64,000 nt of DNA from Nitrospinales bacterium (GTDB lineage: Bacteria > Nitrospinota > Nitrospinia > Nitrospinales > VA-1): assembly GCA_965262115.1 (NCBI GenBank), contig OZ253496.1, positions 2,208,001 to 2,272,000 of the forward strand, given 5' to 3'. This document shows positions 22,827 through 30,503 of this stretch, one piece after another. The position numbers were made by a program, and so were the translations under genes. The notes under the pieces are model-generated. The model saw only the letters and a program-made list of their open reading frames with translations. It was not told where the DNA came from and searched no databases. Positions within the stretch are counted from its first letter, which is position 1. Each line of letters starts with the position of its first letter.

Positions 22827-23782
22827 TTGATGAATCGATTAATGCCGATGCTGACAGGGAGTTATTTATTTAAAGGATTATGCGGACTATTTGCGTTCAT
22901 CGCGCTTTGCGGATTTGATACCTCCCGGCACAGTAATCCCGTCGATGGTATTTATGATGGGGGGGGGGGGGGCCGGGTAAGGACGGAATCCCCGCCATCC
23001 TCCACCCGAAGTTCATATCTGCGAAAGAAGCCGATAAAACGTTTAAAAAAAAACATGACCGTGTTCTGGGGTACGTTAATAACGGTCAGGCGAGGGGGGC
23101 GTGCCCCATTAAAATCCTGAACTGGCATGAAATTGTCAATGATCGTGTTGGCGGGACATTGATAGTTGTGACTTGTTGCCCTCTTTGTGGCACCGGGATG
23201 GTGTTTGATCCCCAAGTGAAGGGACGCAAGCTCACTTTTGGAGTTTTGGGTACGCTCTACCAAAGCGATATGTTGCTTTACGACCATCAAACGGAAAGCC
23301 TCTGGTCGCAAATTAAATCGGAGGCGGTGACTGGCAAACTGACCGGTGCCAGTTTAAAACTTCTTCCTTCCAAGCATACGAACTGGGCGAGTTGGAAAGC
23401 CAATCATCCGGGAACCCGGGTCTTATCTGATAAAACGGGCTACTGGCGTGATTATGACCGCGATCCTTATCAGGGCTATGAAACCAGTGAGCGACTGATG
23501 CTCAATGTGGACCAGAAGAGCTGGGAATACCATCCCAAGGAAAAAATGATCGGTATAGAATTAGGCGGAGTCACTAAAGCCTACCCTTTTTCTGAGTTGA
23601 ATAAATTGAAATCGCCTGTCAAGGATGTTCTGGGAAAAACACCCATCCGTATTTTTTATGACCACAGATCAAAAACGGCGTTCATTCGGGACGAAAAAAA
23701 CGGGGAGATACCTTCCGTCGTAGGGTTTTGGTCTGCCTGGTACGCGTTTCACCCTGAAACTCGTATATTTTCTGCCAAGTAA
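22827..23782 (+). pseudogene. DUF3179-family exported protein, out of frame at a G14 tract (22959-22972)
   Basis: N-terminal signal then GFDTSRHSNPVDGIYDGG; second frame open from 22973: PGKDGIPAI...ILNWHEIVND...CPLCGTG...LWSQ...WYAFHP. Confidence 0.85.
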
Positions 23783-25663: not shown

Positions 25664-26647
25664 TCAGTGCAAGGGGCCTTTGCTCACTGGCTTCACGCCT
25701 AGTGGTTCTTTGATGGCTACCTCATAAAACTGCTTCACAAATGATTTGAACAGTTTGACCGGATTGAATGAAATATCTATCGGGTAAGCCTGTTTGAAAT
25801 CCTCAACAGCGAAAGTCCGGTAATCTGTGATCCCTGAAATCTCCATGTTTTCCAAATGAAACTGGCCGAACTGTTTGAGCCTTGCTGCTTCCAAAGCATA
25901 AACCCTGTCCAGAGGAATGTTTAACAGATCGGCAAAAACCCGGTCGAGAGCGGTCATGTCTTTCGATGCCCCCATCACTCCAAGGGGGTAGGGCGTTCCG
26001 TTGATCGGGCCTTGCCCCTGCATGGCCTGAATACCATCGGCGATGGTCAGGCAGGGGTTGACGTGACGAGCAATATCTATCAGCATTTTCCCGAACTTAA
26101 GCTTGTCGTTTTTAACCAGGCAATGAAGGGCCGGCTTGCGTTTGCCGATCACCAATCCGAACAGGTTTTTAATGCCCAGCGTCATGGTCATCTGGCAATG
26201 CGATTTAACTTTTGGGAGATTAATGATTTGGTCATAGTGTTCCAGGCAACCGGCTATTTTCAGATGCGGAACCTGTTCTGTATTTTCGAATGGGATAGGG
26301 TCGGTCAAGGGCAGGATCTGCGCGCCATATTTTTTTTCCAGAAAGCCATACCCGGCTTTGTCAGCCACCGCCGATAAACTGCCCAGAGCGGGACTATCGC
26401 TGACAACGATTTGTTGGACCGACAGGTCCTTAAGAACCCGGCACACTGCCTCCACCACCACGGGGTGAGTGGTGACACAGCGTTCGGGTTTGAACCCCCG
26501 TAAAAGATTGGGTTTCAAAAGAACCCTCTGACCTAGGCCGAACAGGGCTGCTTCAGGGTCCAGGACTTTCAGAGAGTTCCGGACAAACTGCTCCACGTTC
26601 TCCAGTGAATAATCTTCAATTTTTTGTAAGTGGACTTTTGATTTCAT
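25664..26647 (-). CDS. DUF362-domain protein
   Basis: VLLKPNLL, TTHP, INLPKVKSH, KNLFG, GQGP. Confidence 0.88.
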   Translation of the reverse strand: MKSKVHLQKIEDYSLENVEQFVRNSLKVLDPEAALFGLGQRVLLKPNLLRGFKPERCVTTHPVVVEAVCRVLKDLSVQQIVVSDSPALGSLSAVADKAGYGFLEKKYGAQILPLTDPIPFENTEQVPHLKIAGCLEHYDQIINLPKVKSHCQMTMTLGIKNLFGLVIGKRKPALHCLVKNDKLKFGKMLIDIARHVNPCLTIADGIQAMQGQGPINGTPYPLGVMGASKDMTALDRVFADLLNIPLDRVYALEAARLKQFGQFHLENMEISGITDYRTFAVEDFKQAYPIDISFNPVKLFKSFVKQFYEVAIKEPLGVKPVSKGPLH

Positions 26648-26716: not shown

Positions 26717-29700
26717 TCAGGAGGGGGAATATAGCACTTTATAGATGCCCATATTTCTCAGCACATGTTTGACATAGCGGCGGGTTTCAGGGTAGGGGAT
26801 GGATTCGATGAATACGTCCTGATCGCTCAAATGTCCGAATCGTTTCAGCCATTTCTTCAGGACATGGGGGCCGGCATTGTATGAAATCAGAATATGCATC
26901 CCGTTTTTGTTGAACCGTTTTTTCAACTGGCTGACATATTTCACACCCAGCCGGATGTTCAGATCAGGATCAAAGAGGGCATCGGTCTCAAAAGGTTTTT
27001 TCAATTTTGTTTTCGGGTAAAGTTCTTTTCCGGTGGCTGGCATGATTTGCATGAGCCCGCGAGCACCGGCAGGGGAAAGTGCCTGACTGTCAAAAAGACT
27101 TTCCTGGCGGATAATGCCGTTCACGAAAAAGGGGTCGACCTTGCGCGATTTGGCATAGGCCAGAACTGCTTCTTCGTAGGCGAGAGGAAAAAAATGCTTC
27201 CAGAATTTTGAAGAAATATTTTTCTCTTTGGCTTTGGTGGCGAAGTCTTTGTATAGATGTAAAAGCCTGAGTGATTCTGCATAGCCCTGCGCCTGATGAT
27301 AAAGCTGGGAAAGCCACAAAACCCCGGTCAGGTTTTTCCGCACAGTTTTTTGTAATTCTCCAATTTCGTTGCGGGCTTCCTGCGTCAATCCAAGCGTAGC
27401 CAGTTCGTTGGCCCGGATGTGATGAAACTTTTCCCGCTCGCTGAGAGGCCGTCCCAGTTGCAGGCTTTCTTCTTTGGAAGATGACTTTTGTTGGGGCGTT
27501 TCGAGTTTGACATCCAAGGCCAGGAGCCTGTCTTTAGCGCGGATGCCGTGAAACGTGTAGGGGTAAAGCTCAGCGACTTTGGCATACAAATCGCGGGCCA
27601 CATCTTTTTTGTTCAGTTTTTCTGCCGATTTGGCGCTCCAATACAAGTTGTATTCGATAAACGATTTATCAGGGAATCGAGTGGCCGCGTCCTGGAACTT
27701 GTTGAAGGCTTGTTCAAATTTTCCATCGAGATAATGGACCCAACCCAGCCGCCAGCCGGCCCACTGCGCATAACCTTCATTAGGATATTTTTCCAAAGCG
27801 GTCTTGTAGTTTTTTAGCGCTTCAGGAAAGTTTTTGCGTTCTTCATAAATCTTTCCGAGAAAAAACTGCGCCTTCACTGCCAACTCTGTTGAAGGGGCGT
27901 CCTGCGTGACTTCCTTAAAATATTTGGCCCCCGCCATCGGTTGGCCCAGGTTCCAAAAGTTTCTGCCGATGTCGAATTTGGCGTTTTGCACCTTGGCGTG
28001 GTGAGGATATGTTTTCAAAAATTGTTTTAAAACTTTGTTGGCTTTTTTACGATCTCTAAGTCCTCCATGCGCCCGGGCCAGGAAAAAATAAAATCGTCCC
28101 GGTAAAAGCTTGTTTTTCTTTTGCAGTTTCTGGCCTTCCTGAATGATTTCTTTGTAACGCACGTTTTCAAACAACCCTTGAATGCGGTTGGTGTACTCTC
28201 TTAAAGTTAGCGGAACCTCTTTAACCGCTTGCAAAGCCGACAGATGCTTGAGTGCCATTTCTGCCTCAGGCGTCTGATCATGGTTGGGATATTGGATGTG
28301 AAGTTTGCGGAAATTCAAATAAGCTTCGGCTGGTTTTCCGGACTGTTCCTGAGTCCTTGCCAGTTGGAAAATCAGGTCAGGCAGAAATTCGCAAAACTTG
28401 CGGCGGCTGAAATCCTTAGTGATCGACCGGATAGTTTCTTCCAGCGTTTTCATTCCTGCTTCTGTATTCTGCAACCGGATTTGTGCATGGGCAAGAATCA
28501 GTTGGAGTTTGGCATAGAGAAGGGTGTTTGGGCTGTGCTTGAGGAGTTCGAGAGTGTTGTCGCGGGCTTTTTCATGTTTGCCTGCTTGCACCTGTGCCTG
28601 GATTAAATGGAAGCGGATATAATCTTCCACCTCTTTGTAATTTTTGCTCAATGGTTCGAGAAGCTTTATGGTTTCTTCCGGCTTTCCCTGTTCGGCGTGA
28701 ATGAGGGCGAGTAAAAACCGGGCGCGTTTGGCTTCCATTGAACCTGGTTTTTGATTTTGCAGTGCAAGAAGGCTGTTTTTAGCCTTGCTCCAATGTTTTT
28801 TCTGGAAAAGTTTTTTAGCCTTTTCATAGTGCGTAGGCTTGGCTTCGCCTGTTTGTGCAAAGCCCAGGAACATGGCCAGGAAGCAGGCGGCGACTTTGGG
28901 TAGAAGGGAAAGCAGTTTATCCGCCATGGTTTTGGGCGTGTCTTTGGAGCCCACCGGCAGTTTATCGGCGTTATTCATTTTTCTGAACCAGGTCAACTGT
29001 TTTTTAGCGTAGTGCCGGGTTTCCCTTTTAATCTCATAGGTGGCGCGGTCCAGATCCAAACTGCCTTGAAGATATTGAATCATTTGTGCGTAACCGATGC
29101 TTTTGCAGGGTTTCAGATCCGGACTGTAGCCACGCTCCAAAATGCTTTGAACTTCTCGGGCAAGCCCGTCCTTAATCATTTTGTCCACACGCTGATCGAT
29201 TTGGGAATATAGCTCGGTCCGGTCACTCTCCAGAATGAAGGTGTGGATAGGGAACTGGCTTGCGGTCGGGGAGTCGCTTTCATGAAATTCCGAAAAACGT
29301 TTTCCCGTGTCGAGATAAACCTCTAAAGCGCGTTCGATGCGCAGGGAGTCTGTTTCAGAAATTTTTGTGGCATATTCAGGGTCAACGCGTTGGAGCTCCT
29401 GATAAACTTTTTCAACGCCCTGGTCACGAATGTCCTGCCGGATTTTTTCCCGGATTTCGGGAGAGGCTCCTTCGGCGCAATCGTAATCTTCGGTCAGGAC
29501 CTTTATATAGAGTCCGGTGCCGCCAACCAGAATAGGAATTTTATTACGACTCATGAGTTCGCGAATGATTTCCAAGGCCCGTGTTTTAAAATCGAAAGCG
29601 TTAAACTCTTCATCAGGTTCGAGAATATCGATCAAATGATGGGGGGTCTCCTCCCTCACTGCCAGCGGAGGTTTAGCGGTGCCGATGTCGAAATATTTAT

Positions 29701-29815
29701 AGACCTGCAACGAATCGGCGCTGATGATTTCCGTGTCCAGCTTTCGGGCAAGGGCCAGAGCTGTTTCACTTTTTCCCGAATTCGTTGGGCCGGTTAATAT
29801 AATTAAAGGAAGCAT
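26717..29815 (-). CDS. miaA: tRNA dimethylallyltransferase fused to a signal-like segment, TPR repeats and a soluble lytic transglycosylase domain (1032 aa)
   Basis: GPTNSGKS, SADSLQVY, IGTAKP, VGGTGLY, YAKKQLTWF; then a hydrophobic segment, TPRs and SLT motifs RQES, GLMQIM, SYNAG, ETRRYV with no intervening stop. Confidence 0.9.
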   Translation of the reverse strand: MLPLIILTGPTNSGKSETALALARKLDTEIISADSLQVYKYFDIGTAKPPLAVREETPHHLIDILEPDEEFNAFDFKTRALEIIRELMSRNKIPILVGGTGLYIKVLTEDYDCAEGASPEIREKIRQDIRDQGVEKVYQELQRVDPEYATKISETDSLRIERALEVYLDTGKRFSEFHESDSPTASQFPIHTFILESDRTELYSQIDQRVDKMIKDGLAREVQSILERGYSPDLKPCKSIGYAQMIQYLQGSLDLDRATYEIKRETRHYAKKQLTWFRKMNNADKLPVGSKDTPKTMADKLLSLLPKVAACFLAMFLGFAQTGEAKPTHYEKAKKLFQKKHWSKAKNSLLALQNQKPGSMEAKRARFLLALIHAEQGKPEETIKLLEPLSKNYKEVEDYIRFHLIQAQVQAGKHEKARDNTLELLKHSPNTLLYAKLQLILAHAQIRLQNTEAGMKTLEETIRSITKDFSRRKFCEFLPDLIFQLARTQEQSGKPAEAYLNFRKLHIQYPNHDQTPEAEMALKHLSALQAVKEVPLTLREYTNRIQGLFENVRYKEIIQEGQKLQKKNKLLPGRFYFFLARAHGGLRDRKKANKVLKQFLKTYPHHAKVQNAKFDIGRNFWNLGQPMAGAKYFKEVTQDAPSTELAVKAQFFLGKIYEERKNFPEALKNYKTALEKYPNEGYAQWAGWRLGWVHYLDGKFEQAFNKFQDAATRFPDKSFIEYNLYWSAKSAEKLNKKDVARDLYAKVAELYPYTFHGIRAKDRLLALDVKLETPQQKSSSKEESLQLGRPLSEREKFHHIRANELATLGLTQEARNEIGELQKTVRKNLTGVLWLSQLYHQAQGYAESLRLLHLYKDFATKAKEKNISSKFWKHFFPLAYEEAVLAYAKSRKVDPFFVNGIIRQESLFDSQALSPAGARGLMQIMPATGKELYPKTKLKKPFETDALFDPDLNIRLGVKYVSQLKKRFNKNGMHILISYNAGPHVLKKWLKRFGHLSDQDVFIESIPYPETRRYVKHVLRNMGIYKVLYSPS

Positions 29816-30503
29816 AAATCTTTTCCATTTCATTTGAATAGGCACCATCTTCATTATAGACCGCCAGCACAGGGGCCACGCTAAATTCGGCTTTTTTTCC
29901 TTTAAGGGCGGAAACCAGAACGATTTTTGCCGGAGCTTGATAATTGCCATGGACAAAACGTGCTTGGTTGGGATATAAATTTTTGCATTCCAGTTCCCGC
30001 ATGAGTTCGCCCAGTCGCTTGGGCGGATAGGCCAAGCTTATCTGTCCGCCTTTTTTCAGTAGCGGAGCAGATTTCTCCAGCAGGGAACTCATGCTGAGGG
30101 ACAGTTCGTGCCGGGCCAGGGCTTTGCCGGAATCGGGATTGGTCTGTCCCGTCTGAACCTTACGGTAAGGCGGATTGGAAACAATATGGTCAAAAGATTC
30201 GGGCTGCAGGTTTTCTGCTTCTTTCAGGAAATCACCTTGAATGAGAGTAATCTGCTGATCCATTGCATTTTTGTGAATATTTTTTTGTGCATGGGTGCAA
30301 TCCTGAATTTCAATGGCGGTTACTTCAAGCGTCGGTTGCCGGTGAACTATCAATAGAGGAATGATGCCGCAACCGGTGCCGATATCGAGCACCGACTGAT
30401 CCGGCAACAAGGGCATGAAATTGGCCAGCAGAAATGGTTCGATGGAATAGCGGTAGCCGGTATTTTCCTGGTCAATGACCAGTTCGGTTTTGGTGCTGTT
30501 CAC
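29766..30503 (-). CDS. tRNA1(Val) A37 N6-methyltransferase family (TrmN6/YfiC-like)
   Basis: YRYSIEPFLLA, LDIGTGCGII, NPPY, ARHE. Confidence 0.85.
   Translation of the reverse strand: MNSTKTELVIDQENTGYRYSIEPFLLANFMPLLPDQSVLDIGTGCGIIPLLIVHRQPTLEVTAIEIQDCTHAQKNIHKNAMDQQITLIQGDFLKEAENLQPESFDHIVSNPPYRKVQTGQTNPDSGKALARHELSLSMSSLLEKSAPLLKKGGQISLAYPPKRLGELMRELECKNLYPNQARFVHGNYQAPAKIVLVSALKGKKAEFSVAPVLAVYNEDGAYSNEMEKIYASFNYINRPNEFGKK

Follow-up and report, generated by a model that had tools for sequence, protein, structure and literature searches.

A single gene joining MiaA to an Slt-type lytic transglycosylase through a signal-like segment across the order Nitrospinales

The DNA analyzed here (the window) is a stretch of 64,000 nucleotides from a Nitrospinales bacterium (contig OZ253496.1 of assembly GCA_965262115.1, positions 2,208,001 to 2,272,000), whose genome, G000, is represented by one contig and is 94% complete. 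On its reverse strand, at 26717..29815, lies a fused miaA-slt gene (product P0001), in which the tRNA prenyltransferase MiaA continues without a stop codon into a lytic transglycosylase of the Slt70 type. A first-pass annotation made from the letters alone had described a stop-free frame of 1032 codons at this position, and translation confirmed it: the product has 1032 amino acids and no internal stops. Its start is most likely the ATG at 29815, as full-length homologues align from residue 1. Databases (NCBI, JGI) label the long protein solely as MiaA.

All parts of the gene are read from the reverse strand. The MiaA domain covers residues 1-306 (28898..29815), including the P-loop (9-16), D34, the last strand (283-287), and the last helix (294-304). 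It is followed by a hydrophobic segment, or h-region, of 13 residues (308-320; 28856..28894), the hydrophobicity maximum of the protein, and by a polar c-region (321-325; 28841..28855) that ends in G-E-A and carries a rule-predicted signal peptidase I site at A325/K326. A helical solenoid resembling tetratricopeptide repeats (TPRs) spans residues 326-766 (27518..28840) and is the counterpart of the Slt70 U domain. Linker helices and the SLT catalytic domain complete the protein (790-1028; 26732..27448), with the catalytic E905 at 27101-27103. Pfam matched IPPT at residues 37-279 (E 1.9e-85; 287 bits, cut-off 23.6) as well as TPRs and SLT at 885-1000 (E 1.5e-27), and the NCBIfam MiaA model TIGR00174 scored 307 bits against a curated cut-off of 149. 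These matches bear out the earlier description of a complete MiaA and an intact SLT domain with its catalytic glutamate, but MiaA does not end near the TWF motif as then supposed. Alignment with E. coli MiaA (2zm5) extends to residue 304 of the fusion, and together with the modeled helix at 294-304 this places the true end at about residue 305 (28901). The Slt half scored under the NCBIfam equivalog cut-offs, with 178 of 234 bits for its nearest model, NF047373 (BB0259), and 121 of 536 bits for PRK11619 (Slt).

Structure prediction and motif conservation show that both halves are ordinary members of their families by fold and motif, and that neither is in its usual form. An AlphaFold2 model built from an 88-sequence alignment (mean predicted local distance difference test score, pLDDT, 84; predicted TM-score, pTM, 0.65) contained the MiaA fold up to residue 304, followed by a helical solenoid and an SLT domain. 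At residues 307-327 the pLDDT was under 50, and the hydrophobic segment had no confident packing. The best Foldseek matches of the model were E. coli MiaA and Slt70-type enzymes, with TM-scores of 0.79-0.81 over E. coli chains for the MiaA half and, by target length, 0.58 (1qte) and 0.51 (6fbt) for the Slt half. The MiaA motifs (P-loop, D-S-x-Q, G-T-A-K, and R-Q-x-T-W) and the SLT motifs (Glu-Ser, G-x-M-Q, and Y-N-A-G) were all present. Across the relatives described below, G9, K15, D34, S35, Q37, G45, and K48 of MiaA were invariant in 69/69 sequences and Q273, T275, and W276 in 73/73 loci, while E905, S906, G920, M922, Q923, Y979-G982, E1010, and T1011 of the SLT domain were invariant in 71/71. 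The invariant SLT motifs fit peptidoglycan as the substrate. Residue 272 (28998-29000), in the R-Q-x-T-W motif, is Lys in G000 and Arg in 72/73 loci.

The MiaA half is the only IPPT match in the whole of G000, and miaB is present, which suggests that this half forms N6-isopentenyladenosine at position 37 (i6A37) on tRNA. G000 contains two further SLT genes, built differently, and no second TPR-SLT gene was found in it at E 1e-25. Many genomes outside genera g1 and g20 do have a second TPR-SLT gene, with frames of ~800-950 codons (for example, G034:C1:2315150-2316376 and G031:C1:675455-676717). A flagellar role of the Slt half is unlikely in G000, because FlgI was not found in this 94% complete genome.

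The open frame across the junction is not an artefact of assembly or sequencing. Assembled contigs (not raw reads) from four runs of four studies cover at least 28604-29300, with no insertions, deletions, or joints. Two of these contigs show no difference from the window, which may have been derived from them, and the other two carry 14 and 15 substitutions. Two of the four deviate from the window at 29000-29001.

Related genomes showed the same architecture throughout the order. A protein search returned 428 matches, of which 115 of the 120 listed were 1000-1070 amino acids long, and their sources were named Nitrospina, Nitrospinaceae, or Nitrospinota. Within the phylum, 110/120 genomes had a MiaA match (96/102 in the order of the window and 14/18 in other orders). 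The junction was read in 73 loci of the order (of 96), representing four families and 21 genera, with 20 loci from the genus of the window; it had no stop codon in any of the 73, and full-length matches across the order reached down to 36% identity. We found no reversal to two genes in these loci. The short MiaA frames of G074, G064, and G075 break off where their contigs end. At one locus (L048, G094:C6:12962-13845), miaA has a frameshift near residues 123-140, while the junction is open and the slt part intact; this genome is only 59% complete, and the frameshift is possibly an assembly error. Another genome with 5% contamination carries two full-length, diverged copies of the fusion (L056 and L057; G071:C12 and C39), either a duplicate or a binning mix.

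Among 76 miaA loci from named genomes, eight were fused, and all eight belonged to Nitrospinales, Nitrospinaceae, Nitrospinota, or Ca. Nitromaritima. In the 68 listed from other lineages, no frame was longer than 360 codons, and the flanks analyzed contained no match to SLT. The contig scan behind these loci covered five of 64 parts of the collection, so rare fusions may exist elsewhere. In a search of 1.84 billion cluster representatives, 14 full-length fused proteins scored 1075-1741 bits, and full-length stand-alone proteins scored at most 539 bits. Each MiaA-bearing match over 400 amino acids among the best 150 belonged to this top, fused group, and no independent fusion in another lineage was found among those 150. 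Three other long matches (P0236, P0225, and P0184) were rejected as extra fusions, as they contain no IPPT domain.

Gene arrangement in the sister orders points to how the fusion arose. There, miaA ends in a stop codon in 15/15 loci (14 from the phylum survey and L174), and in 10 of these (families f7, f8, and f9) a separate TPR-SLT gene lies downstream, mostly overlapping the miaA stop or close to it. With slt starts assigned by prediction, the stop of miaA and the start of slt have a single base in common in L044, and six f9 loci have an in-frame slt ATG that lies within the last 8-17 nucleotides of miaA. The other five loci (f5 and f6) have slt elsewhere in the genome. Stand-alone Slt proteins of the sister orders have an N-terminal hydrophobic signal wherever their contig includes the start. 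A MiaA tree was built from 57 rows: 31 fused MiaAs (no more than two per genus, with genera g12 and g17 excluded), 14 separate ones, and 12 of other lineages. All 31 fused MiaAs formed one clade with a Shimodaira-Hasegawa-like approximate likelihood ratio test (SH-aLRT) support of 99 in this quick tree without bootstrap. The MiaA-Slt fusion is thus real, of single origin, and order-wide. Because separate slt follows miaA so closely in sister orders, the simplest history, and a likely one, is that the fusion arose once, when miaA lost its stop within an operon of the order methyltransferase-miaA-slt. We infer the ancestral adjacency from f7-f9, since the nearest sister of the fused clade, with weak support (85), is f6, in which slt lies elsewhere. 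Loss of the stop would have placed the slt signal peptide directly after the last helix of MiaA, and the junction segment is likely to be the former signal peptide of the transglycosylase.

The junction has kept the features of a signal peptide across the order. It contains the most hydrophobic 15-mer of the protein in 71/71 complete frames, with an uncharged h-run of median 14 residues (10-23; 73 loci). The ten residues preceding the h-run are net positive in 69 loci and neutral in four. After it, the (-3,-1) rule is followed in its loose form by 71/73 loci and in its strict form (Ala at -1) by 60/73, compared with shuffled means of 50 and 29; none of 1000 shuffles was as high. At least one member of 20/21 genera has Ala at -1. 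Among 89 stand-alone Slt-like representatives, 81 had an N-terminal hydrophobic segment, 71 of these without a lipobox. Those 71 signal peptides had the same median h-run of 14, met the loose rule in 59 cases and the strict rule in 34, and had a best 12-residue hydropathy of 2.71 versus 2.64 in the fused proteins. Identity across 20 genera was 57% in the MiaA core and 52% at the catalytic end, but 24% in the h-region and 15% in the c-region, so the (-3,-1) rule has been kept while the letters drift. Two other export routes were rejected: the lipoprotein route through signal peptidase II, as no locus of 73 has a lipobox Cys after the h-region, and the twin-arginine translocation (Tat) route, as a twin arginine precedes the h-region in only 1/73.

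With no stop after MiaA and no general internal start, passage of the chain through the inner membrane would have to occur at the h-region. We think it probable that this buried signal directs the export of one precursor, which signal peptidase I then cuts to give a periplasmic Slt and a MiaA that is either tethered by its tail or released. The earlier note had offered a membrane-bound bifunctional protein or a polyprotein cut by signal peptidase. Its single polypeptide with an internal signal-like helix stands, and of the two forms the cleaved one fits the comparative data better than the anchor.

Several observations weigh against this export and cleavage. The cleavage test is a home-made rule rather than SignalP, and the shuffle figures overstate the signal because the 73 loci are kin, 20 of them from one genus. 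The strict rule fails in 13/73 loci (including 4/5 in g19 and 3/5 in g7) and the loose rule in 2/73, and among 69 control windows taken from the mature part, one attained the observed strict rate (none the loose rate). Single sequences are poorly discriminated, since in G000 the strict rule is met by 81/196 N-terminal and by 22/66 internal hydrophobic segments. In 21/73 loci the h-run is followed by 20 residues of net positive charge, and positive charge there can slow export. The lack of reversal in 73 loci may reflect selection for the fusion rather than neutrality. Finally, the distance from the start of the h-region to -1 is 18-21 residues in most loci, which is enough for a membrane anchor if the segment is not cut.

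Were the segment an uncleaved signal anchor, the product would span the inner membrane once, with MiaA on the cytoplasmic side and the transglycosylase held on the periplasmic side. That length, a median best 19-residue hydropathy of 2.04 at the junction, and an N-side charge that is zero or positive in 73/73 loci would all suit an anchor, and uncut preproteins remain held by their signal peptide (PMC9360617). We nevertheless regard it as unlikely. The h-run is no longer than in stand-alone signal peptides, where an anchor should have lengthened, and the (-3,-1) pattern, with its Ala at -1 in nearly every genus, persists at a c-region identity at which an uncut site should have decayed. For these reasons cleavage is favored over an anchor, and the predicted site after A325 is probably the one used. 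In-frame internal initiation, by contrast, would yield a separate Slt preprotein and leave full-length chains mainly as a source of MiaA. The first-pass annotation had the ATG at 28927 (Met297; 28925..28927) as the start of a signal peptide, and from Met297 the sequence does resemble a normal signal peptide of 29 residues. This ATG was rejected as a general start: it lies inside the last helix of MiaA, at a position where the aligned residue is Leu in 52, Ile in 16, Met in four, and Val in one of the 73 loci. The missing Shine-Dalgarno sequence before it is weak evidence, because only 30% of 1805 crudely called open reading frames (ORFs) have one, versus 12% of random 17-mers. Between five residues after W276 and the h-region, 58/73 loci have no ATG and 31/73 no ATG, GTG, or TTG, and in 13 none is present from W276 onward. 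The Met297 column has TTG 13 times, where 8.9 +/- 2.7 would be expected, and it comes 19th when the 73 Leu columns are ordered by start-like codons. In genus g7 (L076 and L081-L084), 5/5 loci have an ATG one codon before Met297 (W276+20) with AGGA ~10 nucleotides upstream; this is possibly a lineage-specific internal start, and the AGGA also follows from Lys/Glu-Asp codons. With MiaA still lacking a stop of its own, we judge general internal initiation to be very unlikely. Synonymous sites argue in the same direction, and a hidden RNA signal at the junction was rejected: their conservation is not above the gene mean in 5/6 genera and slightly so in g11 (0.32 vs 0.37), at 5-11 sites per genus.

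A conditional cut, as in RsiV, would let the state of the envelope control cleavage, and through it where MiaA resides or how stable it is, as well as the i6A37 level. The fusion has never been lost in 73 loci of four families, RsiV demonstrates that access of signal peptidase can be gated (PMC7593790), and the level of MiaA in E. coli affects frameshifting and stress resistance (PMC13602947). The junction, however, conserves only signal features (15-24% identity), adjacent separate genes in the sister orders explain the origin without a regulatory gain, and the only sensor that the sequence offers is the enzyme itself. Conditional cleavage therefore seems to us highly improbable. Its fullest form, a trans-envelope switch in which the tethered transglycosylase senses the state of the wall and gates the cleavage, and with it the release or stability of the cell's sole MiaA, is also very doubtful; if true, it would tie the decoding of UNN codons to cell-wall remodeling. 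Scarcely credible are a chain that stays in the cytoplasm, a programmed frameshift that frees MiaA, or a frame that is an artefact. The +1 and -1 frames of G000 do reach stops soon after the MiaA core, which would suit a frameshift, but conservation of such stops is lacking (the -1 frame of L024 stays open for 200 codons; in L050 the first are at codons 79 in +1 and 46 in -1), so a programmed frameshift with a conserved exit stop was rejected. A cytoplasmic chain sits poorly with catalytic SLT motifs suited to peptidoglycan, and an artefact with the agreement of contigs from four studies and 73 loci on the frame.

Under the favored reading, cleavage of one exported precursor, the steps may be as follows. 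The substrates of MiaA, tRNA and dimethylallyl diphosphate (DMAPP), are cytoplasmic. MiaA requires both (PMC13602947), and this part of the chain would fold first, in the cytoplasm. On emerging, the h-region would then be picked up by the signal recognition particle (SRP) or SecA; segments of 12-17 hydrophobic residues are those that SRP favors, and SecA targets RodZ through an internal segment (PMC9360617). The h-region would insert with its N-terminal side in and its C-terminal side out, SecYEG would export the 707-residue TPR-SLT part, and LepB would cut after A325, in keeping with the Ala-X-Ala rule of signal peptidase I (PMC9360617). MiaA (1-325) would stay on the inner membrane through a tail of ~19 residues, or be freed by RseP, a protease that degrades signal peptides in E. 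coli (PMC9360617). Genes for LepB, RseP, and Ffh are present in G000. Loss of a stop in a closely coupled miaA-slt operon most likely began this arrangement, and the fusion need not carry a regulatory role, because the signal would still have worked and the fusion been tolerated. The idea, put forward in the first-pass annotation, that the fusion sets the ratio of tRNA modification to wall remodeling found no supporting result; it fixes only 1:1 synthesis, and in the sister orders the genes are already adjacent or overlapping.

Upstream of the fusion, a TrmN6-like S-adenosylmethionine (SAM) methyltransferase (29766..30503, reverse strand) overlaps the start of miaA by 50 nucleotides (29766-29815), and the same overlap occurs in f5 loci L040 and L041, where miaA stands alone. 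The overlap agrees with the earlier report of a second A37-modifying gene at this position, but that identity is only plausible, as the best NCBIfam match, NF047853 (TrmN), scored 79 bits against a cut-off of 350. Downstream lies a DUF362 gene (25664..26647, reverse strand), a usual neighbor in families f1 and f4. In L043:919-3750 (G118), two additional genes stand between the methyltransferase and miaA, unlike in its relatives. Elsewhere in the window, an apparently broken gene lies at 22827-23782 on the forward strand, with an ORF at 22827-23120 followed by 23159-23782 without a clear N-terminus. Outside the window, an ORF that resembles an HNH nuclease by eye continues in frame as a small protein bearing a signal-like segment (G000:C1:2163156-2164319, forward strand; L091:5157-6320), and an integrase-like gene adjoins it. 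The small protein has frames of 114-147 codons in 12 other genomes of the genus and is broken in G006. This HNH fusion is likely a strain-level accident of the same shape, and a contrast to MiaA-Slt.

Among the sequencing runs listed as containing the DNA of the window, none was of RNA. In N. gracilis Nb-211, a table in PMC11428151 places gene 2917507366, named 'tRNA dimethylallyltransferase', between an ArsR regulator and a gene named tRNA1Val methyltransferase, with no slt listed beside it in that table, which is the gene order of the window less DUF362. Judging by this order, the gene is probably the fusion. In axenic culture it reached 51-55 transcripts per million (TPM) in exponential phase and 120-145 TPM in stationary phase (PMC11428151).

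The Nitrospinales are a major group of nitrite oxidizers, and in them an annotation needs correcting: a protein of ~1030 amino acids named only MiaA conceals the one large Slt that genomes such as G000 have. If cut as predicted, the fusion would be a natural, order-wide bacterial polyprotein in which one chain gives two unrelated enzymes in two compartments, and a Sec signal peptide would still work, and be cut, behind a folded enzyme of 300 residues. The separate-gene state persists in sister orders, which leaves origin, cost, and reversibility open to test.

We found no published description of a MiaA-Slt fusion in the literature searched, which covered few subscription papers, and the system is best placed by comparison with its parts and with other internally signaled proteins. 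Like known MiaA enzymes (TIGR00174; PDB 2zm5/3foz from E. coli and 2qgn/3exa from B. halodurans), the fusion has the complete fold, its final strand and helix included, with the P-loop Lys, D34, S35, and Q37 invariant; unlike them, it has no stop at ~300-330 amino acids and runs on to a hydrophobic segment and a periplasmic-type enzyme. Like Slt70-type enzymes (E. coli Slt70, 1qsa/1qte; P. aeruginosa Slt, 5ohu/6fbt), it has a helical solenoid and a C-terminal SLT domain with the catalytic Glu, but its signal-like segment is internal (308-325), 300 residues in, whereas that of its sister-order orthologues is N-terminal. The closest working parallels are the FbcH cytochrome b-c1 precursor of Bradyrhizobium japonicum and the RsiV protein of B. 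subtilis. FbcH is encoded by one gene with an internal Ala-X-Ala signal-like segment and gives two mature proteins. The fusion resembles it in having one frame, two protein families, an internal h-region, and a conserved, here predicted, (-3,-1) site. In FbcH the joined parts are two subunits of a single membrane complex, while the fusion joins soluble-type enzymes of unrelated pathways and different compartments, with cleavage as a prediction. RsiV is membrane-bound and is cut by signal peptidase and then by RasP (PMC7593790). Both RsiV and E. coli RodZ share with the fusion a cytoplasmic N-terminal part, a single internal hydrophobic segment, and an exported C-terminal part (PMC7593790, PMC9360617). 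The cleavage of RsiV is a gated signaling event that destroys the protein (PMC7593790), and RodZ is a membrane protein for which the available part of PMC9360617 describes no cleavage; neither, as these sources present them, has a 300-residue housekeeping enzyme ahead of the segment. With cleavage likely on comparative grounds, the MiaA-Slt fusion would extend the class of internally signaled polyproteins.

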